Source of the DNA: a virus
Reading direction: 5' to 3' (one strand)
Length of the DNA: 64,000 bases
Virus record (IMG/VR): IMGVR_UViG_3300032229_000759
Span: 48,255-112,254 of that record
Of the stretch, positions 29,275 to 59,495 are shown one piece after another. The position numbers and the translations under genes are program-made. Position 1 is the first letter of the stretch; every line of letters starts with the position of its first letter. The notes beneath the pieces are model-generated. The model was not told the DNA's origin, made no database searches, and worked only from the letters and a program-made list of their open reading frames with translations.

Positions 29275-29343
29275 TGCGTACCCTTTGACTATAAAGACAG
29301 GTATACCAATTTACATTAATATACACCACTTATATAGCATTTC

Positions 29344-38543: not shown

Positions 38544-41267
38544 TTATTCGAGATTGTCTACACAACTGTTATCTGATGTAATTTCACCAGCCACGTTTCC
38601 ATAATTGCATGAGCCGCTTACAAACACAGCATTACCTAGTACAGAACCATAATTATTAGAATAGTTGATAAAATAACCAGAAGATTGAATCGTACCATAA
38701 TTGTTTGATCTTGAAAAAAATCCACGATTTAAATCTCCTTGGTTCGTGCTGGAACTAAATGTACCAAACTGTACCTTACCAAAGTTATAACTATCGCTAT
38801 TAAAATAACCTTCTAGCAAAGCTCCAAAATTATTACTGTTAGAAGTAAAATAAGATGTGGTTTTGGTGTTTCCGGCATTAGTAGCATTATTAAAAGTAAC
38901 GACACCCACATTGTCTAGACTGCCACTATTTGTTCCAAAATAGAATGACACATTACCGGATCCAGTGATATTGCCCTCGTTGTTTGCTAAAACCCCACTA
39001 AATGTAACTGTGCCATTTAATTTAATGTTATCTTTATTTTTACTGGAGTCATTAAACAATAAATTATTAGCATTATTAATACTACCTAAATTAATAGAAT
39101 AATTATAAAATTTAATATTTTTTTGTTGAGACTCAATACTTGATAAGTTTTGACTATAATCAAAAAATTCTATAATAGAACCGTCTATATCTGACTTATT
39201 AGATGAAAAATTATAAAATTTAGCCCTAGATAAAATGTTACCCTCGTTAATTCCACTATTAATAAAAGTACCTAAATCAACTTCTCCTCTGTTGATAGAA
39301 TATAAGCCAAATTGTGCTTCATAACAGGTTTTATAGTTAATAGCATTTTCAGAAAAAAAACTAGCAGATAAACCTGTTCCATAATTTTGACTATTTCCAA
39401 TAAAATTGACTAGGTTCGCCATGCCATAGTTTTTGCTTTCATTTCCAAAAATAGCAGCCTCTATTACGGATCCATAATTCTTACTAACATTATAAAATGA
39501 TCCATTTTTAATTATACCACTATTAACACTACTTCCACTAAAATAACAAAAATCACCCAATCCTTGATTTATGCTGTTGCCATTAAAATACATATTAACA
39601 CCACTGCCATCAACGTCCGACACGGATCTGTCATAAAAATTACCCAGAGACTGTATTTTATTTGAGTTTTTAGATTGATTATAAAATGATCCAGAAAGAC
39701 TGACTATCTTTTTATTAGAACTACTGTCATAAAACAATCCGTGTCTTATGGTTCCAGAATTAATGCCGCTGCTATAGAAATATCCCGAGCCTTGGCTAAT
39801 ATTACCGCTTGCGCCATTATTTGATCCGTTATAAAAATATATTTGTCTACCGTTTATTGTTCCTAGGTTATGTGATTGGTTGTAAAAATAAATTAAATTG
39901 GAACCATTAATACTATTATTATTCAAAGCTTTACTATCAAAAGCGATGTTTTTGGCTTGATTAATACTTCCTTTATTTGGAGAGTTTTGAAAAATACAAT
40001 TAGTAATATCTGTAACATTACCCCTATTTTCACAGCCAGATTGAAATATGCATGTATTAATCTGAGATAGATCGTTTTCATTATGAGAATTATTTAAAAA
40101 TTCTATTTTTATACCGGAGCCGGTAATATGTCCATTGTTTGTAGAAAAATCTGAAAACTGAATATTGCAAGTAGCGTCACTAGAAATGTCACCATTATTT
40201 GAAGACATATTAAAATTGATAATACCGATGCCATCTATTGATCCGCTGCTAGCATTTGCAGAATTTCTGAAGTCGCAGGAGCCACTCGTCAAAGTACCGT
40301 GATTGGTGGAATATTCTAAAATTGAATTGCCTAAAACTTTACCATAATTGTTAGCAAAAATAAATTTAGTATTATTTAAAAGCTTGCCATAATTAGATGC
40401 ATTCCCACTAAAAAGACTTAAGCCATCTACAGCTCCATAATTAGTAGAAGATCCTAAAAATTGACTATAGCCAGAAACGATACCGTAATTATTAGAATCA
40501 ATAAAAATAGTAGGACCCACACAAGTACTATAATTATTACTACCAGAAAAAACAACAGGACCACTTAAAACGCCATTATTAGTACTATTAATAAATAATA
40601 GTTTGCCATCAAGAACTCCGTTATTTGTGCTGTTGTCAAAAGTAAAATTACCATATCCACTAGCAATAGATATCGAGTTGTTAATAAAACTAAATGTGCC
40701 ATCCAACAAAATGCCACTATCTTGAATATCGCAAGCGTCGAAGATGCCAGAGGTGCTTTGTATAATATTTTGAAATTGTTCTCTTCTTTTAGTTATGTCT
40801 GTATTAACAAACTGAACAGTCTCTGTGCTGATATAACAGTCTTCGAGTTGCGAATTCAAGATGAGTCCCGACTTAGCTATATCTAATACAGTATGTTTAA
40901 TAATTCCACTATCTATAGATAAAGATGCAATAGACCACTCACACACGCTGTCTGATTCCCAGTGTTCACATAGTATGTAGGGGTCTATAATTAATATCTC
41001 CCCTTCCATTCTCTCGCACCCAAAAGAAAAATAAACCGGGTCTTCTGGATCAATTAATGTACCAGCTATAATTTTTAAATTAGTAAATTCTAATAAAGGT
41101 ATACGATTAAAACATGAATCAATAGATAAATTTAAAATATAATTAGTCGGTATAATGCTTGCATCATCTATTTCATTTCTGGGAATAGCTCGGTTTGGTT
41201 TTGATAACTGATCGTCTTTGTACCAATTATTAGGATTACAAAAGACTGGAGAAGACGGTTGTGTCAT
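38544..41267 (-). CDS. Beta-solenoid repeat protein
   Basis: About 40 imperfect 14-18 aa repeats F-x-N/D-x-S-x-N-x-G-x-I/V. Confidence 0.7.
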   Translation of the reverse strand: MTQPSSPVFCNPNNWYKDDQLSKPNRAIPRNEIDDASIIPTNYILNLSIDSCFNRIPLLEFTNLKIIAGTLIDPEDPVYFSFGCERMEGEILIIDPYILCEHWESDSVCEWSIASLSIDSGIIKHTVLDIAKSGLILNSQLEDCYISTETVQFVNTDITKRREQFQNIIQSTSGIFDACDIQDSGILLDGTFSFINNSISIASGYGNFTFDNSTNNGVLDGKLLFINSTNNGVLSGPVVFSGSNNYSTCVGPTIFIDSNNYGIVSGYSQFLGSSTNYGAVDGLSLFSGNASNYGKLLNNTKFIFANNYGKVLGNSILEYSTNHGTLTSGSCDFRNSANASSGSIDGIGIINFNMSSNNGDISSDATCNIQFSDFSTNNGHITGSGIKIEFLNNSHNENDLSQINTCIFQSGCENRGNVTDITNCIFQNSPNKGSINQAKNIAFDSKALNNNSINGSNLIYFYNQSHNLGTINGRQIYFYNGSNNGASGNISQGSGYFYSSGINSGTIRHGLFYDSSSNKKIVSLSGSFYNQSKNSNKIQSLGNFYDRSVSDVDGSGVNMYFNGNSINQGLGDFCYFSGSSVNSGIIKNGSFYNVSKNYGSVIEAAIFGNESKNYGMANLVNFIGNSQNYGTGLSASFFSENAINYKTCYEAQFGLYSINRGEVDLGTFINSGINEGNILSRAKFYNFSSNKSDIDGSIIEFFDYSQNLSSIESQQKNIKFYNYSINLGSINNANNLLFNDSSKNKDNIKLNGTVTFSGVLANNEGNITGSGNVSFYFGTNSGSLDNVGVVTFNNATNAGNTKTTSYFTSNSNNFGALLEGYFNSDSYNFGKVQFGTFSSSTNQGDLNRGFFSRSNNYGTIQSSGYFINYSNNYGSVLGNAVFVSGSCNYGNVAGEITSDNSCVDNLE

Positions 41268-41282
41268 ATAAATTATATTATA

Positions 41283-42860
41283 CTAGGGTTTAAAATATAA
41301 AGGACCCATATTATCATTTAATAATTTATATTTATGTATAGGATAAAAAGGTCTATAATCTAAATTTTGAGCAGGGAAGCCGTCTACTAGGGACAATGCG
41401 ACTATTAAACCAAATGCTCGTTGTCTGTCTGAGCACTCAAAAGGAACACAAGATCCTTGTTCTGTACAACCTCTGGTCCTGTTTTGATCTTCTGGTAGAC
41501 AGGGCGGTGGGCAATATTGATCTTGACAATCTATAAAATCAGGAGCCCTATTGAATCTTGTTATACAATTTAAGTGACTTTCTGTGATTAAAAAACTACC
41601 CGGAGGAATAGGTCCCCAACTAGGTTCTCCTCCACTATTCCATTCTCCCCAACTATTAGCTATTAAAAAAACACATTCTGGATATTCAATTTTAGTATCA
41701 TCGTATCCTATAATATTATATGTATGATAAATATTTTTATCTGGATAAGTTAAACCTGTTGAGTCCCTCTGGTCTGGAAAACCCACGTTAGTAAATAATA
41801 AAACACCATATCCATTATATAATAAGTCTTTAACACTAGAGATAATATTTGTTGTAACAGCAGATATCGTTCGTGCTCTCTGTACATTTTTAAGATCCTC
41901 TACATTGCCGTATGAATCATAAAAAGATTTTTGAGTGTCTTCTTCGTTTTGTTTTTTAATTTCTATAACAGTATTATTAATATAATCGTAACCATTTAAT
42001 GATTGAAAATGTTTTAGAAACATGTCATTATGACAAGCATAAAAATTAGATCCTGTATTATTAATAAAATTAGCATAACCCCCATAGCTTTTTCTTTTTA
42101 GTATACCTATGTGTTTCAAAATTTTATCAATCCAACCAGACAAAACATTTCCTCCAAATAAATTGTCTTCAGTCGGTACTAAATACGAAAAATCAAACCG
42201 ACTTGTTCCTGGACCTCCACAACATTCATTGATTCTGCGAACACAATCTCCACCACAACAAGGGTTGTCACCAGTATCGTCTTCCGGACAGGCTCCACAA
42301 CTACCGCATATTTTACTCCCATCTTCAGCTAAACCACAGGAGTGCGGCGCTCCAACTGCACCAATAATTGTACCTCCATTTTTTGTATTTTCTATACAAC
42401 TCATATCCCCACAGCCAGTAGCCCTACCAGATAAATTTGTTTCTGATATAATATCTGGTCCTAGCATCATCAAACAATCCCAAAGAGAATTACCACAAAA
42501 ATATTCTAAATATTCCGTCGCCATTCGATGCTCCCATTTAGTATATGACCTACTAGCTTCTATGGCACACGCTCTGGCGAGATCACAGCCGTTTCGTACA
42601 GCATGGGACGTTCCGCTTTTAATAGTGGGTTGAATTTCTGTAAAAGCTCCAGCATCTATAGTGGTCAAAAACTTGTAGGGTAATCCTAATTGGTTAGCTC
42701 CGCTACCATCAATTTTTTGAGAAATTTTATTATAACATGGATACTTCACATGTTTCAAAAATTGTACCATCCTTATCAAGTCATAAGGAGTACCCACACC
42801 CTCATAATTTATACAGGGGTTTAAAGAATATTGATAATATAATTGTTTGGGTGTTAACAT
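41283..42860 (-). CDS. Papain-like (C1) peptidase paralog lacking the catalytic Cys, with Cys-rich inserts
   Basis: Aligns with 44144..45070 (SHAVRNGCD, FLIANSWGEWNSGGEPSWGPIPPGSFLI) but has QPTIKSGTSHA instead of QVTGDCVSHA. Confidence 0.75.
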   Translation of the reverse strand: MLTPKQLYYQYSLNPCINYEGVGTPYDLIRMVQFLKHVKYPCYNKISQKIDGSGANQLGLPYKFLTTIDAGAFTEIQPTIKSGTSHAVRNGCDLARACAIEASRSYTKWEHRMATEYLEYFCGNSLWDCLMMLGPDIISETNLSGRATGCGDMSCIENTKNGGTIIGAVGAPHSCGLAEDGSKICGSCGACPEDDTGDNPCCGGDCVRRINECCGGPGTSRFDFSYLVPTEDNLFGGNVLSGWIDKILKHIGILKRKSYGGYANFINNTGSNFYACHNDMFLKHFQSLNGYDYINNTVIEIKKQNEEDTQKSFYDSYGNVEDLKNVQRARTISAVTTNIISSVKDLLYNGYGVLLFTNVGFPDQRDSTGLTYPDKNIYHTYNIIGYDDTKIEYPECVFLIANSWGEWNSGGEPSWGPIPPGSFLITESHLNCITRFNRAPDFIDCQDQYCPPPCLPEDQNRTRGCTEQGSCVPFECSDRQRAFGLIVALSLVDGFPAQNLDYRPFYPIHKYKLLNDNMGPLYFKP

Positions 42861-42919
42861 AGTTAGCCATAATACGAGATAAGCTATCTATGATATAATA
42901 CACTCTTGTAATATTTTGA

Positions 42920-43168
42920 CTAATTTGTTGTTAGCTTATTATATAACACTAGTGATAAAACAGCCCCTGCTGCACCAGCAAATAAACCGGCTGGAGACAA
43001 TGAATCGTAACTACCTATTAAATATAGAATAGCTCCACCCATATAGGATCCAGCTACGCCTAAAGCTACGGTTTTTATAAATCCAAAATTCTCTTCTCCG
43101 GGCACTATGCTTTTAGCAATAGATCCCACGAATAAACCATAAACACACCACACTAATAAACTAAACAT
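42920..43168 (-). CDS. GlsB/YeaQ/YmgE transglycosylase-associated membrane protein
   Basis: GLFVGSIAKSIVPG...GFIKTVALGVAGSYMGG. Confidence 0.8.
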   Translation of the reverse strand: MFSLLVWCVYGLFVGSIAKSIVPGEENFGFIKTVALGVAGSYMGGAILYLIGSYDSLSPAGLFAGAAGAVLSLVLYNKLTTN

Positions 43169-43559
43169 TTGCTGTCTCCACTAGGGTTTGTAGTTCTTCA
43201 TCCGTGAGGGTTTCTCCGTTGTCTAAAAGACTATTAACTATTGACAAAGAATATTTATTATAATCATCAGGCTTCATTTCTCTTCTTAAGAGTTTCTTGA
43301 TTCTCATTTTAGTAAACCATCCTCGGCGAACACTATACTCTTTTACTTGTTCTCCATATAATGAGTATTTCTCGGATAGTGAGCAATCTTTATTCAATTT
43401 ATTTTTATTGCATTCTTGTAGTATTCTTATCAAAGTAAGTATAATACTAATTATCATCAAAATAGTAAAGGGGTCGAAACTATGATTATCATTCTTAGGA
43501 AGATTAGACTTCTCTAAAACTTTTAATGCAATATTTTTAAGTTGTTCTTTATTATCCAT
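43161..43559 (-). CDS. Single-TM hypothetical protein
   Basis: FDPFTILMIISIILTLIRIL TM segment. Confidence 0.6.
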   Translation of the reverse strand: MDNKEQLKNIALKVLEKSNLPKNDNHSFDPFTILMIISIILTLIRILQECNKNKLNKDCSLSEKYSLYGEQVKEYSVRRGWFTKMRIKKLLRREMKPDDYNKYSLSIVNSLLDNGETLTDEELQTLVETANV

Positions 43560-43561
43560 TA

Positions 43562-43885
43562 TTATTTACCTTGTGGCTTTTTAATAGGGCAAACACCATT
43601 GGGACAATCATTTTTGACTGGGGCAGCCGCGGCTTGAGTTGACAATCCTTGTTCTGGTTCGCAATAATTACACTCTATTTTTTTAATACCATCACCACTC
43701 ATATACCATCCCTTGCCTTTGCAAACGGGACAATCTTTGCGCTTGTGTTTAACAACAGCGTTGTCTGAATGCTTGCTTTTAATAATAGCTCCAGCAAGTG
43801 TTACTGGAGCGGTCGTAGATCCATAATATGGTCCGCTGAACCATAATAATGAAACACCCAATAAACAAATAATGCTTTTATTCAT
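43562..43885 (-). CDS. Exported/membrane protein with DnaJ-type CxxCxGxG finger
   Basis: N-terminal hydrophobic segment, CPVCKGKG, CNYC, C-terminal CPNGVCP. Confidence 0.6.
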   Translation of the reverse strand: MNKSIICLLGVSLLWFSGPYYGSTTAPVTLAGAIIKSKHSDNAVVKHKRKDCPVCKGKGWYMSGDGIKKIECNYCEPEQGLSTQAAAAPVKNDCPNGVCPIKKPQGK

Positions 43886-43886
43886 T

Positions 43887-44090
43887 TTATTTTCTCCATG
43901 GAAGAGGAACTATATTGTCTATAGTATCAACCACTTTTTTAAGAGGTCGTGGACGATTAGGTTTATTTACTGGGGGATTGTCAACTTTAGGCTTTGGAGA
44001 TAGTTTGATTATTAGATTAACCAAACGTTCAAGAACACTTACTATCAGATTTACGAGACCTCGTATTTTTAATCGATCTCTAAGATTCAT
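43887..44090 (-). CDS. Small basic amphipathic protein
   Basis: AAGGAG RBS before ATG 44090. Confidence 0.55.
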   Translation of the reverse strand: MNLRDRLKIRGLVNLIVSVLERLVNLIIKLSPKPKVDNPPVNKPNRPRPLKKVVDTIDNIVPLPWRK

Positions 44091-44143
44091 AGAATACTCC
44101 TTATGGTATATATTATAATACACCATTAATAGCAGTCTAATAA

Positions 44144-45070
44144 TTATAGATAATCATCAAATCCGTAGTCTGGTAGTTTTTGTACAGGAAAGCCGTCAAA
44201 GTTGCTAAATGCGTATGCTCCGTTTTGAGCCAGCATACCTTTTGCTACATCTGCATGGATTAAAAAAGAACCGTCTGGGATAGGACCCCAATCTGGATGT
44301 CCACCGTCGTTCCATTTACCCCAACTGTTTTGAACCAGGAATGCTAATTCTCCATTAGTATCATCGCATGCTGTCCATGCCATAGCATGTGCCCATGAGC
44401 CAGACTGTTTAGCAAAACCTTTTTTATCTCGTGTGCTACTGAATCCATAACTAGAACAAACACTTAATCCATAACCATTAGCTAAAGCGTCTCGTGCTTC
44501 TTCTACTGTTCTTACAAGACTGACTGTTTTTATTTGATGGTCATTTGCTAAATCTATAACGGGGTCTGGCAATCCTCGACCACCCCATCCTGCTCCAAGC
44601 ATACCTTGATACTTAGAAAGATCTACAACGCCCTTATAGTTTTTCCTTACTAAAACACCACCATACTTACTCACAAACTCTGCTGCTCTAGCACAACTCA
44701 TACCCTGTCCGCCGTGTCCACGAGCACCGTAAATCCCCTCTGTTGCGCCCCTGGCTATCCAACTCTCTCTATCTGCATGAACATCAATTTCTACTGCTCG
44801 ACTAATATCACAAGCGTTTCGTGTAGCATGTGAAACACAATCTCCAGTAACTTGTCTTTCATTATAAGGATGTTTATCAAACTTTAAAACACTCTTATAG
44901 GGGGTTGACAACTTGCCTTTTCCTGTGCCGCTTACTCTTCTGCTAGCATCACCAAATAATGGATATTTAGACACCTCCATTAAATGGTCATATACGTGAG
45001 GCTCCCAAAGGCACCCGCTAAATCCTTGACGATACTGATCGTATAATTCTTTTGGAGTAAAACGTGGCAT
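44144..45070 (-). CDS. Papain-like (C1-type) cysteine peptidase
   Basis: Q-VTGD-C, WAHAM and QNSWG give an intact Cys-His-Asn triad plus the oxyanion Gln. Confidence 0.82.
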   Translation of the reverse strand: MPRFTPKELYDQYRQGFSGCLWEPHVYDHLMEVSKYPLFGDASRRVSGTGKGKLSTPYKSVLKFDKHPYNERQVTGDCVSHATRNACDISRAVEIDVHADRESWIARGATEGIYGARGHGGQGMSCARAAEFVSKYGGVLVRKNYKGVVDLSKYQGMLGAGWGGRGLPDPVIDLANDHQIKTVSLVRTVEEARDALANGYGLSVCSSYGFSSTRDKKGFAKQSGSWAHAMAWTACDDTNGELAFLVQNSWGKWNDGGHPDWGPIPDGSFLIHADVAKGMLAQNGAYAFSNFDGFPVQKLPDYGFDDYL

Positions 45071-45561
45071 TATTTACTAGCCTCATTATAAGCCCAGGCT
45101 AAAGCATTAAAACCCTCTACTGCCTTAACTCTTAGGTTAGAAGTTAAATTAATGTTATCATCCCCGATACTTGCTACAATAACTTCTTTAGCTTCTTTGG
45201 GTAGATCAGCATACTTACCCTTGATGTCTAATCGTAGCATAACACCGGCTATGCTATTAGCTTGACGAATTTCATCAGTATTTTTGATTACTAAATCTTC
45301 ACCATCTAGTTGTACTAATCGGCCCAAATCTATGCTTAAGTCTCGTAATCTTTTGAAATCGTTTTTTGAACCATTAGAAGCTTTTAACAAATTAATTACG
45401 TCTTGTGCTTCTTTCTTAACATTTTCATCTGATGGAGATACCAATTCCATGACATCTATATTAGTAGGATTATTATTTCCTCTTAAAAAATTCAAATCAA
45501 ATTTAGACAAGCCTAATATGATTAGTAGACCAGCAATCGCTAGAATAATTTTATTATTCAT
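45070..45561 (-). CDS. Signal-anchored/exported hypothetical protein
   Basis: MNNKIILAIAGLLIILGL N-terminus. Confidence 0.6.
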   Translation of the reverse strand: MNNKIILAIAGLLIILGLSKFDLNFLRGNNNPTNIDVMELVSPSDENVKKEAQDVINLLKASNGSKNDFKRLRDLSIDLGRLVQLDGEDLVIKNTDEIRQANSIAGVMLRLDIKGKYADLPKEAKEVIVASIGDDNINLTSNLRVKAVEGFNALAWAYNEASK

Positions 45562-45932
45562 TTGACTTCACCTTCTTTATTGGCACAGATCGTGGGACTA
45601 AGATAGGGAAACATTTGATCAGCAACCTTCACGGCTTCTGCACAACCATTTTGTACTGCTAGGTCTCTGGTCTGTTTCCAGCTTACGACTAATTTAAAAA
45701 ATGTATCTTCGTTGATTTTAGAAGCTACATTATCAAAAGCTACTGGTGGAATGGTAGGAGTTATTGACTTAATGCCCTTAAACTTATCAACCAAATCCGC
45801 TACTAGTTTTTGAACTGGACTGAGTTTATCTTTAAATAAAACCCATAGTACTAAGCCCATACCGGCATATAGGGCTAGGTCTGTGCCACTCACCCTGCTA
45901 CTAAACTCTTGAAAGCTTTCTGTAAAATTCAT
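45558..45932 (-). CDS. Single-TM hypothetical protein
   Basis: LALYAGMGLVLWVLF. Confidence 0.6.
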   Translation of the reverse strand: MNFTESFQEFSSRVSGTDLALYAGMGLVLWVLFKDKLSPVQKLVADLVDKFKGIKSITPTIPPVAFDNVASKINEDTFFKLVVSWKQTRDLAVQNGCAEAVKVADQMFPYLSPTICANKEGEVK

Positions 45933-45946
45933 TAGATTATTCCTTA

Positions 45947-46375
45947 TTATTTTTCTGATATTCTGGGTTTAACATTAACAAATGCGTTAGCTTTTATAGC
46001 CGGATCAACAAATACGCCAGTATTTCTAAAAGTAGTTACCATCGCGTCAATTGTGGAACTTACCAAAATCATAAGAAATGCTTTGACATACTTATGTATA
46101 ATAGGTTCTAAGAGATTTGGCACAAAGGGAATATCTACTACTATAAAAACACTATCATAGAACTTATTCAATAATTCCATAGCGATAGCTTTTTTATCTT
46201 TACCAGCTAAATCTGACGACGTACTTTCTATGGTCTGAATAATACTAGCAACAGCTAATTGCAAAATTTTCCATGCTTGAGCTAAAGCTACAACTTTAAT
46301 TTCATTCAGAGATATTTTTGCTTGATTTATTAGTTTTTCTAGTTCTAGGTTTATTGCTTCTTTTACTGTTAACAT
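45947..46375 (-). CDS. Hypothetical amphipathic helical protein
   Basis: GKDKKAIAMELL...IPFVP motif. Confidence 0.55.
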   Translation of the reverse strand: MLTVKEAINLELEKLINQAKISLNEIKVVALAQAWKILQLAVASIIQTIESTSSDLAGKDKKAIAMELLNKFYDSVFIVVDIPFVPNLLEPIIHKYVKAFLMILVSSTIDAMVTTFRNTGVFVDPAIKANAFVNVKPRISEK

Positions 46376-46658
46376 CTTTTTTACTCCTATCGTTAATTTT
46401 ATTTGCTATGTTTCGTTCTTGTTGACTTGCTGTATCCCACCAAGTTTTTTTAATTTCTTTTCTACTATTAATATACTTATATAATATTGCTAATTGACCA
46501 CCAATCAAAATCATACTTTCAACACCATGACTGACATCACGAATAAGATCTTCTTTTTGGCTGTTCTCTCCTATTAAACCTATTAGATATAAACCACTAA
46601 AAATAAAGCTTACTGCTGTAAACCAGAATTCGCTTGTACGATAACCCGGCTTTACCAT
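46302..46658 (-). CDS. Holin-like two-TM membrane protein
   Basis: KPGYRTSEFW N-terminal motif common in phage holin-like proteins; two hydrophobic segments; basic tail. Confidence 0.5.
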   Translation of the reverse strand: MVKPGYRTSEFWFTAVSFIFSGLYLIGLIGENSQKEDLIRDVSHGVESMILIGGQLAILYKYINSRKEIKKTWWDTASQQERNIANKINDRSKKDVNSKRSNKPRTRKTNKSSKNISE

Positions 46659-46698
46659 ATTTAATCTCCCAAATGTTACATTATATAATAAACAAAAA

Positions 46699-46896
46699 TT
46701 ATAAAGTATCTACTGATTTCACAAAAATACCATTATAGAATCTGTTGTCATATTTAGCTTCTATTCCACTCATTGCTGGATTATTTTTAACATAATAATT
46801 ATATGTATTATATTTACCTGTAAATGTAGTAGTAGTTACCGAAGAACCATTTTTAACTGGATTACCAGAAACTGCTGTTTTAATATCGTTTGCCAT
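46699..46896 (-). CDS. Small hypothetical protein
   Basis: 65 aa ORF filling the gap between neighbours. Confidence 0.5.
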   Translation of the reverse strand: MANDIKTAVSGNPVKNGSSVTTTTFTGKYNTYNYYVKNNPAMSGIEAKYDNRFYNGIFVKSVDTL

Positions 46897-46901
46897 AAAA
46901 T

Positions 46902-47219
46902 TTACCTTTCTATTCTATCTTCTAGGGCTTCTAAAGTTTTACCAAGAGTTGCTATTTGAATTTTAAGCTCGTTCATGACTTCTGTATTACGTTGTAGTGC
47001 ATTTGCAAAAACTGTTTGATTTTCTTTATTACTATTTAATCTTTCCATAATAAATTGTCTATCGTGTAAATAGGGAGATTGAGTTTCTATCATATGAGTT
47101 ACTTCTGTTTTTGTAGCCATATTTTTACCAATAGACACCCAAAAACCAACCATTGTTACAATAATACCAATGCTTGTTGTTGCTATGTTTTCCCAAAAAT
47201 GTATGATTGTATCACTCAT
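46902..47219 (-). CDS. TM + coiled-coil protein (holin/spanin-like architecture)
   Basis: IGIIVTMVGFWV TM followed by heptad repeats; GGAG RBS. Confidence 0.5.
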   Translation of the reverse strand: MSDTIIHFWENIATTSIGIIVTMVGFWVSIGKNMATKTEVTHMIETQSPYLHDRQFIMERLNSNKENQTVFANALQRNTEVMNELKIQIATLGKTLEALEDRIER

Positions 47220-47235
47220 AAATTTTCTCCATAAG

Positions 47236-47278
47236 AACTAAAAGCCAACGACACTCAAGGCATCATTGGCTTTAAGTT
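47236..47278 (-). terminator. Intrinsic terminator-like hairpin
   Basis: AAAGCCAATGATGC-CTTGA-GTGTCGTTGGCTTT-TAGTT. Confidence 0.65.
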
Positions 47279-47300: not shown

Positions 47301-47867
47301 TCAGCCAGTTTTAGCCTTGTAATCATTACCTGTTACTGGGGCGGGTTGGCCTAACTTATAAGTTAATTGACCAGGAACAGCACGACTTGGTGTTGCTGCT
47401 GTGTCTGTTGCTAAAGAATCTGTAGCCACAACAGGGAAACCATTATCAAACTGACCAGTATATCTGTTATACTTGTTAGCTCTAATAGCTGTTGTAAATC
47501 TACGGGTTCTTAACGTTTCTAACTTATGAATACTTCTGACTAAAGCGGGTACATTGGCACCTGATAATAGTGCTGTGTTGCTTACTCCGCCTATTGTAGA
47601 TGTGGTTCTCATAGCGACCCCATCTCTATCTCCGTATGCAAAAGCGCCTCCAGATACAGCTTTATCAGCCGAGCCGTTATCAATTACTGTCGATGCAAAA
47701 ACGCCTGTGTTGTAGCGAGAAACACCTACATTAGTAAGTTTACCAGAAGCTACTGATCCGCCTCTAGCAACAGTTCCTCTATTATTAACAGCCCCACTTG
47801 ATGCGGTATTTGGTGGTACAGAATATGCGTTACCGTTTACTTTTGATATAGCCATTTTGTTCTCCAT
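47301..47867 (-). CDS. Gly/Ala/Thr-rich hypothetical protein, possibly virion structural
   Basis: Composition; followed by a terminator. Confidence 0.5.
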   Translation of the reverse strand: MENKMAISKVNGNAYSVPPNTASSGAVNNRGTVARGGSVASGKLTNVGVSRYNTGVFASTVIDNGSADKAVSGGAFAYGDRDGVAMRTTSTIGGVSNTALLSGANVPALVRSIHKLETLRTRRFTTAIRANKYNRYTGQFDNGFPVVATDSLATDTAATPSRAVPGQLTYKLGQPAPVTGNDYKAKTG

Positions 47868-47898: not shown

Positions 47899-48567
47899 CT
47901 AAAAGTTTTCAAAAGTGCTATTATTTTGTGTAATCAGCTCTAATCCATTTAATGAGTTTACTTTTAATCCATACAGATTAGCTTTTTTAATGTTCTGAAT
48001 CTGGCTAATATTCCAAATATTGCCGTTGCAGATAATATTAATGGGTACTTTTTTGTTGATAAGGGCGGAAGCTAGGATATTATCGTTGATATCATCTAAA
48101 GCATATCCTGTTGACGGATATATGGTGTTAATATTATGATCAATTAGTATTTGAGCAACTTTGTACAGTAATTCGTATGTAAAAACCCTGTATTCGAGAA
48201 TATATCTGAGTTCTACACTATATTTTTCACAAATTTCTTTATTGTATTTAATATCGTCTCTAAATTTTTCATACTTACGATTACAAAAATTATATGGTTG
48301 TGCTACCACATTAATAATGGTTGCTCCATTTTTTATTGCTGTTTCTATAGCTGCTCCACGAGTTTTAGTATCTAAAATACCAAATGGATAATCTATAGAA
48401 GAAGCTATTTTAATACCAGTAGTTGAACTAGTCAGTGCTTTAACAAGTCTGATCTGCGGAGCGAATACGCCGATAGTGGAGGGCTTAAAAGTTATAGCCT
48501 GCTGAATATTTTTTCTAATTTCATCATCAGATAATGAAATATCATATATGGAATATTCAATAATCAT
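47899..48567 (-). CDS. DeoC (deoxyribose-phosphate aldolase)-fold protein, catalytic residues lost
   Basis: IDYPFG, AIKNGATIINVV, YILE, IYPSTGY; the Schiff-base Lys is absent. Confidence 0.72.
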   Translation of the reverse strand: MIIEYSIYDISLSDDEIRKNIQQAITFKPSTIGVFAPQIRLVKALTSSTTGIKIASSIDYPFGILDTKTRGAAIETAIKNGATIINVVAQPYNFCNRKYEKFRDDIKYNKEICEKYSVELRYILEYRVFTYELLYKVAQILIDHNINTIYPSTGYALDDINDNILASALINKKVPINIICNGNIWNISQIQNIKKANLYGLKVNSLNGLELITQNNSTFENF

Positions 48568-49246: not shown

Positions 49247-49675
49247 TTATTCCGTATCAAGATGATTATATATTTGATCGTTGATTTCTTTCATTACTCT
49301 AGCATCATCAAAAACCTTGCCAATAGCTATACGGAATCTATATCTTGTAAAAATATCCAATGACTCTACTCCATCAACATTCTCCAGTATATCTACTATA
49401 GTAGGAGTAATAGTAAAATTAGTATGACCAACCCAAAAATTAAAAATTTTACTAGAAGCAGTATTTTCGGTATATGGAATAATACCCATAGGAGTAGCAA
49501 TAGCTTTCATGGGTTTTTTAAGATGATCTATAGGGTTGTATTCATTGCCTTCTTCTAGGTCATCAGACTCTTCAATACTATTAGCGTTTAGCTCATTAGC
49601 ATCGTCTTCTCCAAATGGATCAAACCATTTTTGCCAAATAATTAAACTTTCTTCATTATATATATTGGTTGTCAT
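49247..49675 (-). CDS. Hypothetical protein, C-terminus resembles the Nfu/NifU N-terminal domain
   Basis: LENVDGVESLDIFTRYRFRIAIGKVFD. Confidence 0.4.
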   Translation of the reverse strand: MTTNIYNEESLIIWQKWFDPFGEDDANELNANSIEESDDLEEGNEYNPIDHLKKPMKAIATPMGIIPYTENTASSKIFNFWVGHTNFTITPTIVDILENVDGVESLDIFTRYRFRIAIGKVFDDARVMKEINDQIYNHLDTE

Positions 49676-50061: not shown

Positions 50062-50401
50062 AGGCTAATGATTTTCTTGCGTGACTATCTATAAATGCCA
50101 TGTTGGTACTTATATAATAAGCACTCATGAGTTTGGTGCCAGGAGGTATATTACAAGCATAGAACGCTATAATCTCATTGTCTTCTTTTGCCAAGTCTAC
50201 TAAAATCGGCCTTGTCCAACCAAAAGATAAGTCTATGTGTTGTTCAAAAATGTTCTGTAAACAAACTGGGATAGATTCATCTTCTTCGTTGATCTGAATT
50301 GATATGGGGACATAATTAGTGTCTGATAAAGAAACCACACACCTCTCTAGTCTTTCTATATCATAAGAAGCAACTAATAATTTTAGACTATTAATGAGCA
50401 T
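50054..50401 (-). CDS. Hypothetical protein, possible degenerate Nudix fold
   Basis: DESIPVCLQNIFEQHIDL resembles the Nudix box helix (ESxxxAAxRELxEETGL) without its Glu residues. Confidence 0.35.
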   Translation of the reverse strand: MLINSLKLLVASYDIERLERCVVSLSDTNYVPISIQINEEDESIPVCLQNIFEQHIDLSFGWTRPILVDLAKEDNEIIAFYACNIPPGTKLMSAYYISTNMAFIDSHARKSLAYV

Positions 50402-50975
50402 ATGTTCTAATTCTAGCTAGTCCCTTTTGGATATTTTGACGAATTGCTTCTCTCGTCACTCCAAAAATATTACCTATTTCAGATAATGTTTTTTCTTCAA
50501 AATAGTACAGTCTAATTTGTTCTCTTTGTTTATCTGTAATAATACCAGAATTTAATAGATTATTAATGTTTGACTTTAATAATGAGTCAGACTCTTTGTT
50601 TTCTAATAGGGTCGCAGGGTCATACTCTATATTGTCTGGAATATTATTTGTAAAATTTATGTCATAAGCATCTACATTATCTAGAGAATAATGAGTATTT
50701 TGTTTACGATACTTATTAGTCAAATAAGTTTTAATAGCCCATATACCACACTGATTACGATAGGAATATTTAGTTTTTGACTTACCATTAAAGCCTACTC
50801 TATCTTTGTCCCACTTCCAGTCGCCGACCATAATTGCAGATGCTATATCAGCTATCGCATCATCATTATTTAAAAGCTCCTGCCTTAAAGAACCATAAAA
50901 TGTAGGAGCAAATTTAGAAACTATTTTTTTCGCTAAAGTTATATACGTAGACAGACTATCAAACTGTTTTTCCAT
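50391..50975 (-). CDS. Phage RNA polymerase sigma factor (sigma70 regions 2 and 4)
   Basis: KWD..KYSYRNQCGIWAI (region 2-like); KTLSEIGNIFGVTREAIRQ (region 4 HTH). Confidence 0.85.
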   Translation of the reverse strand: MEKQFDSLSTYITLAKKIVSKFAPTFYGSLRQELLNNDDAIADIASAIMVGDWKWDKDRVGFNGKSKTKYSYRNQCGIWAIKTYLTNKYRKQNTHYSLDNVDAYDINFTNNIPDNIEYDPATLLENKESDSLLKSNINNLLNSGIITDKQREQIRLYYFEEKTLSEIGNIFGVTREAIRQNIQKGLARIRTYAH

Positions 50976-57286: not shown

Positions 57287-58219
57287 TTATAGAATGGGTC
57301 TTATTATACCATTACCCTCATATGCTTTCATGTCTTTGTATCTCAAATCCTTTAATCTCCATGTCTTTTTAGCAAAGACAGCGATGTAGTCATTGCTAGA
57401 TTTTAGCATATTTTCTAAAGAAGCAAACTTGATTTTCTTAGCATAACTGAGTAAAAGTGCCGCACAACCAACAGCGAATGGAGTAGCCATACTAGTCCCT
57501 GTCATAGAAGCGTAGCCATTGCCGGGTACAGCACTGACTATATCTTCTCCTGGCGCTAAAAAATCCAACTCTTCTCCACAACAACTGAAATCACATAAAG
57601 ATAAATTTCTATCAATTGCTCCTATACTAATTGTGTGTGGGTATTTAGCTGGATACTGTATTCCTGATTCTATGCCGCTGTTACCAGCAGCACAAAAAAT
57701 AATTACATTTTTTTGACAAGCATAATTAATAGCTTTTTCTATGTGAATGGATGGATATTCTGATCCTAGAGACATGGTTAGCATATCGGCTCCGTGGTCC
57801 ACAGCCCACACAATGCCTTCTGCGACATTTTTATTACTTCCAGACCCCTGACCATCAAGCGCTTTAATAGGCATGATCTTGGCTTTAGGAGCAACTCCCA
57901 CCATACCTATGCCATTATTTATGGCAGCTATTGTGGCTGACACATGAGTGCCATGACCATTATCATCTTGTGGGTCTGATTTTTTATCAATAATATTGAC
58001 ACCACTAATTAAATTATCTTTAATATCTTCATGAGTTAAATCGCAACCAGTATCTATTACTGCTACAGTAACATTTTCTCCCTCAGAATATTTCCATTGT
58101 TTGGCAACATCAAATTTTTGAATAGGCCAACTGTAAAACTGTGTAGAGGTTGTTGATAAACCATAAATATCAGTTCTAATATGTGGTAATAATTTACATT
58201 GTTTTCTATTATATAGCAT
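57287..58219 (-). CDS. Subtilisin-family (S8) serine protease
   Basis: AVIDTG, GHGTHV, AAGN, GTSMATP. Confidence 0.93.
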   Translation of the reverse strand: MLYNRKQCKLLPHIRTDIYGLSTTSTQFYSWPIQKFDVAKQWKYSEGENVTVAVIDTGCDLTHEDIKDNLISGVNIIDKKSDPQDDNGHGTHVSATIAAINNGIGMVGVAPKAKIMPIKALDGQGSGSNKNVAEGIVWAVDHGADMLTMSLGSEYPSIHIEKAINYACQKNVIIFCAAGNSGIESGIQYPAKYPHTISIGAIDRNLSLCDFSCCGEELDFLAPGEDIVSAVPGNGYASMTGTSMATPFAVGCAALLLSYAKKIKFASLENMLKSSNDYIAVFAKKTWRLKDLRYKDMKAYEGNGIIRPIL

Positions 58220-58226
58220 AAGTATT

Positions 58227-58997
58227 TTACTCTGATTTAGAGGTGTGTTCTAGGATCCATTTATGGAAATTACTTATTCTAGTATGAGAACTTTCATCAC
58301 TATAACTAGAGTTGGGGCTTCCGTCTTTAGAAAGAACAGCAGAATTAATACCCGCTAATTTACCATCTATAAATAATCCTCCGCCACTATCTCCATTTGC
58401 TATCAAAAATTCTAATTCTGTAATTTTATCTTTATGAGATTTGGATGGAGAACAAATTAATGTGCCTTTTTCTATTTTATCAATAAAATTAGAGCCTGCT
58501 CTTTTTTTATTGTCGCTTAAATTAGAACCAGTATTAAATGTGCCAGTATATCCTAATCCAGCAATACTACAAATTTTACCTTCTTCATCATTATCGCAGT
58601 ATAACTCTGGGAAAAATTTTAAATTAATTGGTTCTGTGGTATATCCTAAAGCAATATCGTGTTGTCCAAAAACACTATTATTATAGTCACTGTGACATAT
58701 TATTTTTTTAATCTCGTATTTTTTATCCTCTACAATAATAAAAGAATATTTTTTTGAGTGTACAACGTGAGCAGCTGTTACAATCCAGCGTGGATTAATA
58801 ACTACTGCTGATCCCATATACTTTTGTTCATCCTCATCTATGCAGCAAATTTTAACTACATTATGAAATTTAGATCCATAAGTTACATATTTATGATCTG
58901 GAGTACCGGGGTCTATTGTTCCGGCTTGTAGACGAAAAGACAATAATGATAATGCTATTACCATACCAATAAATAGCAATCGGTTCATCTGAAACAC
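58227..58997 (-). CDS. Trypsin-like (S1) serine protease with signal peptide
   Basis: TAAHV, HDIAL, GDSGG; hydrophobic N-terminus ending LQA. Confidence 0.9.
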   Translation of the reverse strand: MFQMNRLLFIGMVIALSLLSFRLQAGTIDPGTPDHKYVTYGSKFHNVVKICCIDEDEQKYMGSAVVINPRWIVTAAHVVHSKKYSFIIVEDKKYEIKKIICHSDYNNSVFGQHDIALGYTTEPINLKFFPELYCDNDEEGKICSIAGLGYTGTFNTGSNLSDNKKRAGSNFIDKIEKGTLICSPSKSHKDKITELEFLIANGDSGGGLFIDGKLAGINSAVLSKDGSPNSSYSDESSHTRISNFHKWILEHTSKSE

Positions 58998-59117: not shown

Positions 59118-59495
59118 TTATTTGCGCATCCACTGCAAGTATTCTTTCATATTCGAAAATCCTCTTTTATGTTTCTTTTCTATGTTATTTTGTATAATAA
59201 TACTGTGTGGGATTAATGATATTTGATATTCTTTCATTAATTCAGGATTAGTATCAGAATCAACAAAACATATAATATAATTCTCAAATTGATCTTCAGA
59301 ATTTTTAATCTCTTTTTCCAATACCTTACAATATTTGCACCAATCCGCAGTAAATATAACTAATAAATTTTTGTGAGCTTGATTAGATTCTATTACAGCA
59401 TCAATCATAGACTCTAAATATACGGGACTTTCTGCATACGTATGATTTATGCCTGATGTCACTACGATGAATAGTAATAATAAAATAATTTTCAT
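59118..59495 (-). CDS. Exported thioredoxin-like protein
   Basis: Signal peptide, FTADWCKYC, IP cis-Pro motif. Confidence 0.85.
   Translation of the reverse strand: MKIILLLLFIVVTSGINHTYAESPVYLESMIDAVIESNQAHKNLLVIFTADWCKYCKVLEKEIKNSEDQFENYIICFVDSDTNPELMKEYQISLIPHSIIIQNNIEKKHKRGFSNMKEYLQWMRK

Follow-up and report, generated by a model that had tools for sequence, protein, structure and literature searches.

In holin-endolysin(-spanin) cassettes, such as S-R-Rz/Rz1 of lambda and t/e of T4, compact and co-oriented membrane genes surround one leaderless hydrolase, which is a muramidase, a transglycosylase, an amidase or an enzyme of the M15, M23, CHAP or NlpC type. In the signal-anchored or SAR (signal-arrest-release) endolysins, such as Lyz of P1, R21 of phage 21 and gp22 of Mu, the last with its releasin gp25, the enzyme itself carries an N-in/C-out anchor. 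Phage lysis is generally held to depend on a peptidoglycan hydrolase that belongs to one of a few families. The papain-like Cys-His core has been recruited for some phage lysin domains, as in CHAP, NlpC/P60 and the N-terminal peptidase of mycobacteriophage Lysin A (PMC10318531). A search of the open-access literature returned no described phage lysis enzyme of the C1 type. The present analysis concerns a block of 11 genes at positions 42920-47219 of a 64,000-nucleotide stretch (the window), which corresponds to positions 48,255 to 112,254 of the IMG/VR virus record IMGVR_UViG_3300032229_000759 and in which membrane and exported proteins surround a 308-amino-acid (308-aa) papain-type peptidase (Table 1). 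This block appears to be an envelope-directed proteolytic module, most probably a phage lysis cassette, and its gene content suggests, with what we would call an even chance, that a leaderless and zymogen-like C1 peptidase occupies the endolysin's place in such a cassette.

The block shares with the holin-endolysin cassettes the compact arrangement of co-oriented membrane genes around one leaderless hydrolase, a neighbour with weak matches to holins of the LLH type, and a genome in which no other lysis enzyme was found. It differs from those of lambda and T4 in the nature of the hydrolase, in having about 11 genes, of which several show high conservation, in the absence of a recognised spanin pair, and in its dedicated anchored or exported partners, namely an anchor domain, a zinc finger and a thioredoxin. 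With the SAR endolysins it shares the N-in/C-out anchor predicted for distant fused relatives of the peptidase and, as among lysozymes, leaderless and anchored forms coexist in this peptidase family. However, the window's own peptidase has no anchor, which is found only in the fused distant homologues, where a helical domain of ~110 residues and a disordered linker lie between anchor and enzyme. CHAP, NlpC/P60 and the Lysin A peptidase, in turn, are separate families of the clan, and the combination of NSWG with the oxyanion Gln is specific to papain proper. What is new here comprises a network of gene fusions, a holin lead for a 142-aa protein, the wider absence of endolysin families, and inteins at all three catalytic residues of the peptidase.

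Profile comparison and structure prediction altogether indicated that the 308-aa protein is a papain-fold peptidase of family C1, with predicted catalytic activity. As a single sequence it matched nothing in Pfam (E <= 0.1), PHROGs or the PDB, and one homologue (P0310) had a precomputed PF00112 match. Homologues were numerous, with 2,103 matches in one library, the top 120 of which were 78-100% identical. In an alignment of 67 sequences (31-53% identity), C78, G123, H228 and W250 were invariant, and Q73 and S249 were conserved in at least 90%. The profile built from these sequences matched C1 enzymes in the PDB, including xylellain (3ois, E 3e-6), caricain and cathepsins; the catalytic residues coincided in the alignments to 3ois and caricain, the Cys, the His and the NSWG motif being aligned with 3ois. 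The AlphaFold2 (AF2) model of the peptidase, with a mean predicted local distance difference test (pLDDT) of 94.7, was matched by Foldseek with a probability of 1.00 to the papain fold, in which an L-domain helix bears the Cys and an R-domain beta-barrel the His, and VIA-align gave a Z of 20.3 to xylellain, with a root-mean-square deviation of 3.1 over 233 residues, and a Z of 17-19 to ~50 papain, cathepsin and procathepsin entries. The papain-like peptidase described as intact in the initial annotation indeed had the C1 fold and a complete catalytic set. Among the structural matches was also the C1-family protease Cwp84, which processes S-layers (Z 17.1). In BFVD, the model matched uncultured-phage proteins carrying the automatic and unconfirmed names 'Peptidase C1A', 'Peptidoglycan binding-like' (484 aa) and 'N acetylmuramidase (fragment)', and weak or distant fold matches included a viral cathepsin and Lysin A proteins. 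These names suggest that domains of the C1 fold are already part of multidomain proteins resembling lysins.

The fold, the Gln/Cys/His/Asn set and the NSWG motif are those of xylellain, papain and the cathepsins; from these enzymes the phage family differs in its low identity (12-18%), in the absence of a PF00112 match and of a globular prodomain of the I29 type, and in being phage-encoded together with membrane, zinc-finger and thioredoxin partners. In place of such a prodomain, residues 2-50 of the model aligned with the C-terminal part of propeptides, and mature papains began at model residue ~49-51. Since this segment sits where the propeptide crosses the active-site cleft, the model suggests that the peptidase is probably self-inhibited and zymogen-like. 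Xylellain likewise has an N-terminal segment in place of the cleft-spanning part of the propeptide. A viral C1 peptidase made as an inactive precursor is known in baculoviruses, in which V-CATH acts together with chitinase in the late breakdown of host barriers that releases the progeny. However, V-CATH belongs to a virus of eukaryotes that acts on insect tissue and lacks holin-like membrane proteins, so that the analogy is one of use and not of close relationship.

The catalytic residues were also sites of intein insertion. Among 150 representatives, inteins were found before C78 in 18, where the catalytic Cys is the +1 residue, directly after H228 in seven, and after N248 in one; some homologues carried two (intein examples are P0047, P0122, P0133 and P0125). 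Inteins usually reside in DNA-handling proteins, and the catalytic residues of a protease are an unusual target.

The site of action of the peptidase was suggested by a network of fusions. Some distant homologues were, without inteins, 490-800 aa long; a scan of ten fused homologues found no Pfam domain (E <= 0.01), and a phmmer search of P0215 and P0194 against the PDB gave nothing useful. Their N-termini, however, consisted of a transmembrane (TM) helix and a domain ending in ..AIAWA.., the motif found at the end of the 163-aa protein encoded immediately before the peptidase, the stop codon of which overlaps the peptidase start (ATGA). A profile of the 163-aa family (83 orthologous open reading frames (ORFs), 66 distinct sequences) matched 11 fused homologues over their N-terminal ~160 residues, with E values from 8e-14 to 1e-3, and also matched anchor plus zinc-finger proteins in the loci L102-L104 (E 1e-7 to 2e-5). 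In the AF2 model of one fused homologue, P0171 (pLDDT 85.7, predicted TM-score 0.78), residues 2-32 formed a TM helix and residues 54-168 a helical domain, after which came a disordered linker (177-218) and the C1 domain (Z 22.1 to xylellain). As a candidate for the missing I29 prodomain, the 163-aa protein found no support, residues 54-168 of this fused model, the only setting in which the domain was compared, being left uncovered by every procathepsin alignment. In the linker between anchor and peptidase, an RGPP motif recurred in P0153, P0166, P0171, P0174, P0194, P0209 and P0215, and could be a processing site.

Other partners were fused at the opposite end. A CxxCxGxG zinc finger followed the peptidase in P0153, P0157, P0210 and P0215; P0210 and P0215 continued into a thioredoxin-like domain, and P0174 and P0194 joined peptidase and thioredoxin-like domain. 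The C-terminal domains of these four thioredoxin-type fusions had a hydrophobic strand and a CPPC motif, which read CSSC in one case, and two of the four also had a TP(T/Q)T loop; their hhalign comparison with the exported thioredoxin of the window gave a probability of 87% (E 4e-6). The profile of the 107-aa zinc-finger family had no match at E <= 0.01 on the fused proteins; the evidence for its link to them is the CxxCxGxG motif visible in the sequences, together with matches of E 9e-5 to 3e-3 in loci of a second clade. In this clade, the peptidase of which is 54% identical to that of the window and the complete genomes of which measure 167-174 kb, the gene that follows the peptidase immediately encoded, in L100, L101 and G006, a zinc finger plus a WCGPC thioredoxin behind a signal peptide or lipobox, the thioredoxin match in G006 being above the Pfam cut-off, and a protein with an anchor, a domain like that of the 163-aa protein and a zinc finger was encoded downstream of the peptidase in L102-L104.

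Because anchor domain, peptidase, zinc finger and thioredoxin are joined in polypeptides with a single N-terminal TM helix, they must share one compartment. Charges around the anchors were biased: the 163-aa protein had +2.4 on the N flank and -0.1 on the C flank, and among the anchors a positive N flank (+2.4 on average) went with a C flank between neutral and strongly acidic, so that they are predicted to lie N-in/C-out. This bias and the signal peptide, lipobox or anchor of the free-standing partners make it most likely that the compartment is the periplasm or the membrane's outer face, and by these sequence rules the peptidase most likely works outside the cytoplasmic membrane, the exported thioredoxin of the window being its likely redox partner. 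The least probable of the alternatives weighed here would place the peptidase instead on the inner face of the membrane, as a cytoplasmic host-takeover protease that degrades host proteins for amino acids or disables defences. The window's peptidase has no signal peptide, and the phage has other proteases, a leaderless S8 subtilase and a ClpP-like protein, as would suit such a role; however, the charge bias predicts the opposite orientation, and the zinc-finger and thioredoxin domains of the fusions have free-standing homologues with a signal peptide or lipobox. The fusion network turns a vague membrane cassette into a multi-protein model that can be tested.

The absence of a recognisable muralytic enzyme, which had been noted for the window, extended well beyond it. 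Six-frame searches with hidden Markov models (HMMs) found none of 15 endolysin families (GH24, GH19, GH25, GH108, SLT, Amidase_2, Amidase_3, M15_3, M15_4, VanY, M23, NlpC/P60 (PF00877), CHAP (PF05257), Hydrolase_2 and Muramidase) in the contig and its five complete relatives, each family having been run on at least four of the five; the negatives for GH19, GH108 and Muramidase are weaker, because no control genome was positive for these three. Control genomes were positive for most of the families, and a search for S8 on the same contig worked. In three complete genomes of the second clade, GH24, Amidase_2, SLT, M15_3 and M15_4 were not found either, and the 308-aa peptidase itself belongs to no known muralytic family according to Pfam, PHROGs and its C1 fold. 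A canonical holin-endolysin cassette elsewhere in the genome, which together with these proteins as virion components had been named beforehand as overturning the lysis reading, was likewise sought and none was found.

These negatives bear on a further possibility, to which we assign a small probability, namely that a muralytic enzyme of new fold cuts the peptidoglycan and the C1 peptidase is an accessory lysis factor that removes a later barrier, such as the tethers between outer membrane and wall or an S-layer, in the manner of spanins or of mycobacteriophage LysB. C1 peptidases normally cut proteins, Cwp84 provides an S-layer precedent among the structural matches, the genomes of 223-244 kb contain many unannotated ORFs, and no spanin-like pair was recognised within the block, all of which would suit an accessory factor; the six-frame searches and the lack of any candidate hydrolase fold in the cassette speak against it, and the block would still be a lysis cassette if it were correct.

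The cassette was syntenic in 80 related viral loci, so that the synteny check proposed in the initial annotation showed it to be real and conserved, and on this comparison it is a stable unit. The median identity of the peptidase over these loci was 81%, and the 105-aa protein (82% over 57 loci) was also among the most conserved products; apart from these two and the GlsB/YeaQ protein, cassette genes had medians of 54-63%, most neighbours of the peptidase being put at 50-60%, and the ClpP-like and dCMP deaminase genes of 70%. Even in loci with a peptidase only 50-57% identical, small TM genes still flanked it, and the ClpP-like gene and relatives of the 222-aa, the 188-aa and another 142-aa gene (49247-49675) still preceded it.

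Such conservation is also relevant to a periplasmic but non-lytic role, which we consider unlikely although it carries more probability than an accessory function, and in which the module would remodel the envelope, for example by destroying or masking receptors against superinfection and against progeny loss on debris, or would process exported phage proteins such as the trypsin-like protease. The extracytoplasmic evidence applies to it equally, a fixed host target would fit the strong conservation seen in the peptidase and its membrane partners better than typical lysis genes do, the trypsin-like protease and the thioredoxin both carry signal peptides and are further enzymes exported by the phage, and the promoter-like motif of the cassette also occurs at non-late genes. 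Nevertheless, a leaderless peptidase can enter the periplasm only through a lesion in the membrane, and such a lesion is a terminal event; some of its neighbours are holin-like, and no other lysis enzyme was found in eight complete genomes.

High conservation would suit a virion protein as well. It is improbable, in our view, that the peptidase is a head-maturation or tail-fibre protease or an ejected effector and that the membrane proteins are ejection or assembly factors. In favour of it may be cited, besides the conservation, the inteins at catalytic residues, which are typical of core genes, the Cys-rich inactive paralogue and the 907-aa repeat protein that follow the cassette, and the ClpP-like gene 3.5 kb upstream. 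Moreover, in the complete relative G001, 16 kb of fibre-like genes (Mtd_N, Laminin_G_3, Gly_rich_2; 157.8-173.8 kb; L093, L094) were inserted inside the cassette, between the orthologues of 45947-46375 and 46699-46896. However, the G001 head module (large terminase subunit TerL of 677 aa, portal of 728 aa, major capsid protein of 337 aa) lies on the + strand at 39-47 kb, and the peptidase at 155 kb is on the other strand ~110 kb away; and N-in/C-out anchors, partners with signal peptides and a periplasm-type thioredoxin are unfit for prohead assembly in the cytoplasm. In G001, the peptidase was located outside the terminase-portal-capsid module and its fusions appear to be exported, which argues against head maturation as its function.

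The identification of a holin was less direct. The 118-aa KPGYRTSEFW protein, which had been taken as holin-like, combines one clear TM segment with a weaker second hydrophobic stretch (seen by eye) and a very basic tail, and was present in 77 of the 80 loci. It is holin-like in predicted architecture only: neither the protein nor its 21 orthologues had a Pfam or PHROG match, its nearest named Atlas cluster was Phage_holin_1 with a score of 0.76, which is the chance level, and Pfam, PHROGs and Atlas tied it to no holin family. The 142-aa protein was the sole cassette protein with a recurrent named match. Its own copy in the window matched phrog_6918 ('holin') with E 0.006, nine members of the pooled orthologue set matched the same PHROG (best E 3e-5), and PF09682 (Holin_LLH) was matched by four members among 120 pooled cassette proteins (best E 2e-4). 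Six-frame matches to PF09682 fell at the orthologous position in G002, G003 and G005, the best reaching 18.2 bits against a cut-off of 24.9. The pooled matches were assigned to this gene because the window copy matches phrog_6918 and the six-frame matches fall on its orthologues. The 142-aa gene is a lead for an LLH-type holin, short of an assignment to that family. In G005, the likely orthologue of the 132-aa protein also matched PF09682 below threshold.

From these elements, the following mechanism can be tentatively proposed. The 308-aa peptidase would be made in the cytoplasm and self-inhibited by its first ~50 residues, and its partners, namely the 163-aa anchor protein, the exported zinc-finger protein and the exported thioredoxin, would already be placed in or beyond the inner membrane. 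Late in infection, small membrane proteins, the candidates being the LLH-holin-like 142-aa and the basic-tailed 118-aa proteins, would permeabilise the membrane; the peptidase would then reach the periplasm, meet these partners and become activated, and the thioredoxin could keep its catalytic thiol reduced. The active enzyme would cut peptide links of the wall, either peptidoglycan stems or protein tethers, and the relatives in which anchor, peptidase, zinc finger and thioredoxin are fused would represent a signal-anchored version of the same system. That a protease system of this kind replaces the muralytic enzyme altogether, with a holin-released zymogen captured, activated and kept reduced by periplasmic partners, is a doubtful proposition, clearly less probable than the presence of the peptidase at the endolysin's place. 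If true, it would amount to a new enzyme class among endolysins, equipped with redox and activation machinery of its own and distributed through a large, abundant lineage of uncultured phages from aquatic habitats. Should the peptidase be the lysis enzyme, endolysins would gain a new catalytic class, a thiol enzyme kept active in the oxidising periplasm would become available as a worked example, and this large phage group would have a marker gene.

Several points weigh against a lysis function. First, the peptidase (81%) and several membrane partners are unusually conserved for lysis genes, given that endolysins and holins normally diverge fast, and it is above all this conservation that plain lysis leaves unexplained. 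Second, C1 enzymes are classically proteases and not peptidoglycan peptidases. Third, about half of the genes are unannotated, so that they may include an endolysin with an unknown fold. Fourth, all holin matches were below curated cut-offs and the 118-aa protein matched nothing. Fifth, the thioredoxin was present in only five of the nine genomes searched. Sixth, the topology was predicted from the positive-inside rule and from signal peptides recognised by eye. Finally, the promoter-like motif is common to nucleotide-metabolism and structural genes, and the late timing is therefore not fixed. As regards the lysis or egress system based on a C1 peptidase that was first envisaged, its conserved cassette, its C1 enzyme, the absence of endolysin families and the extracytoplasmic partners stood, and the role in lysis itself can be put forward only conditionally.

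The individual features are collected in Table 1. The 11 ORFs of the block abut or overlap on the - strand, and a Kyte-Doolittle scan found hydrophobic or signal segments in eight of them, in agreement with the compact block of small membrane and exported genes first noted there; TM and signal calls combined this hydropathy with reading by eye. In a greedy ORF set, which left out the 118-aa gene, seven of the ten block ORFs had a hydrophobic segment against 15 of the 102 ORFs of the contig (hypergeometric P = 3e-5).

Table 1. Features of the cassette and of associated loci, with coordinates in the window
Feature	Coordinates	Strand	Remarks
Terminator-like hairpin	47241..47273	-	14-bp stem and T-rich tail; between the 188-aa gene and the first cassette gene
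105-aa type-II-like membrane protein	46902..47219	-	TM 12-30, heptad-rich coiled-coil-like C-terminus
65-aa small soluble protein, role unassigned	46699..46896	-	No TM segment, no Pfam match; 51 loci
118-aa KPGYRTSEFW protein	46302..46658	-	Begins MVKPGYRTSEFW; TM 11-29, basic tail, isoelectric point 10.0
142-aa membrane protein, weak relative of LLH-type (superfamily 6) holins	45947..46375	-	74-nt overlap with the 118-aa gene
124-aa single-TM protein	45558..45932	-	77 loci, median identity 62%; no family match
163-aa signal-anchored partner of the peptidase	45070..45561	-	TM 5-23, helical domain ending ..ALAWAYNEA
Leaderless 308-aa peptidase of family C1 with papain fold (predicted)	44144..45070	-	Q73, C78, H228, N248; pro-segment-like residues ~1-50; no signal peptide, no N-terminal anchor
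Promoter-like site	44112..44139	-	Sigma-70-like TAGACT-16-TATAAT; contains GGTGTAT(T/A) at 44118-44124; heads the second cassette half
Small cationic amphipathic protein, 79-aa ORF	43887..44126	-	Pro/Lys-rich tail; 27 of 80 loci; no family match
107-aa exported protein	43562..43885	-	Signal peptide and DnaJ-type CxxCxGxG..CxxC zinc finger; phrog_12574 E 1.4e-5
132-aa single-TM protein	43161..43559	-	From hydropathy; 72 loci; beside the peptidase even in remote relatives
82-aa GlsB/YeaQ-family 3-TM protein	42920..43168	-	PF04226 E 7e-6; median identity 77%
525-aa peptidase paralogue	41283..42860	-	BLASTP E 6e-23 and 3e-15 to the peptidase
125-aa exported thioredoxin	59118..59495	-	Signal peptide, WCKYC; PF00085 52 bits; 12 kb from the cassette

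The assignment of the 82-aa protein to GlsB/YeaQ held at 26.6 bits against a PF04226 cut-off of 25.3, with three hydrophobic segments, and the 105-aa protein had the TM segment and coiled-coil-like tail ascribed to it. This 105-aa protein had no Pfam match, and it was considered as a counterpart of the Mu releasin (DUF2730, PF10805) on account of an Atlas language-model score of 0.92; however, hhalign of its family against 17 gp25 relatives gave a probability of 2.2%, and this candidate was rejected. The 79-aa ORF is probably a protein of ~67 aa starting at an internal Met, because the promoter-like motif falls in its first codons. In the 525-aa paralogue, Gly replaces the catalytic Cys, the His and NSWG are kept, and 26 Cys residues are present. 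Located 3' of this paralogue (38544-41267, - strand), a 907-aa protein rich in Asn, Gly and Ser, without a Pfam match, consists of repeats of ~19 residues (..SxNxG..). It resembles a fibre or spike of the beta-helix kind, and relatives encode versions 28-33% identical. On the other side of the cassette, the 188-aa protein (47301-47867, - strand) is basic, rich in Gly, Ser, Ala and Thr and without a family match; its gene is kept beside ClpP-like and DeoC-like genes even in distant relatives, and the strong terminator-like hairpin stands directly after it. The product may be abundant. The RNA of this hairpin folds at -23.9 kcal/mol (z -4.9), and none of 200 shuffles folded as well.

Promoter-like motifs were also found outside the cassette. 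A shorter GTGTAT motif occurs at 42903, before the 525-aa paralogue, and of the 12 GGTGTAT sites of the contig about half fall within or on the border of its non-coding DNA (2.3%), on the coding strand and just upstream of genes. Sites of the form GGTGTAT(T/A) are at 29327, 32068, 44124, 52671 and 59048 of the window (- strand) and at 59 and 18986 of the contig (+ strand), and the motif also precedes two structural genes of the + strand, the ribonucleotide reductase (RNR) gene and others. The number of GGTGTAT sites in the window corresponds to chance (7 against 6.3 expected), only the placement in non-coding DNA being unusual. From this placement, GGTGTAT(T/A) probably serves as a promoter element specific to the phage, and the phage's own sigma factor, encoded at 50391-50975, may recognise it.

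The window is the right 64 kb of the IMG/VR record, a contig of 112,254 bp with a CheckV completeness of 81% and a GC (guanine plus cytosine) content of ~33%. Genes on the - strand span 5.8 kb-64 kb of the window and include a replication and nucleotide module of bacterial type (split DnaE, DnaB, primase, SSB, RecA, RNR, dUTPase, PhoH), the sigma-70 region-4 protein just mentioned, a ClpP-like protein, and genes for RuvB, GMP reductase, ferritin-like, SET, S8 subtilase, trypsin-like and thioredoxin proteins; tail and fibre genes, among them giant ORFs, are on the + strand of the contig. The complete relatives found through the peptidase measured 223-244 kb (CheckV 100%, terminal repeats in two), and since they are complete and of this size, the contig, which is without the head module among other parts, is by this comparison from a jumbo phage family. 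TerL was nearest to terminases of Bacillus siphophages, at an identity of only 26%, and by megablast and tblastn neither the block nor the peptidase had a relative among 50,697 phage records, a collection that contained no cultured relative. In metagenomes, the family was abundant, with 1,439 peptidase clusters at 50% identity, genomes of 167-244 kb, and hits from Tara ocean data and many JGI/ENA metagenomes.

A planctomycete host with a Cys/Pro-rich envelope, which had been invoked to explain a protease in this position, gained no support from the GC content of 33%, the bacterial replication and transcription genes and the mixed bin labels. A single-protein scan of genome contigs returned only mis-binned phage contigs; eight had been placed in metagenome-assembled genomes labelled Flavobacteriales (two), Aureispira, SAR202, Dehalococcoidia, unclassified bacterium and Promethearchaeota (two), and the host labels drawn from them are weak and contradictory.

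Five genes with protease folds lie within 20 kb, namely the trypsin-like, S8 and ClpP-like genes and the two papain-like ones. The trypsin-like serine protease (58227-58997, - strand) has a clear signal peptide and intact H/D/S residues, and the adjoining S8 subtilase (57287-58219, - strand) has no signal peptide and intact D/H/S residues. Tape-measure-like ORFs reached 3,160 aa in the contig (24696-34178, + strand) and 5,391 aa in G001 (75495-91670, + strand), and other ORFs of these phages were up to 4,009-4,690 aa long; the viruses may be jumbo siphophage-like phages with extremely long tails.

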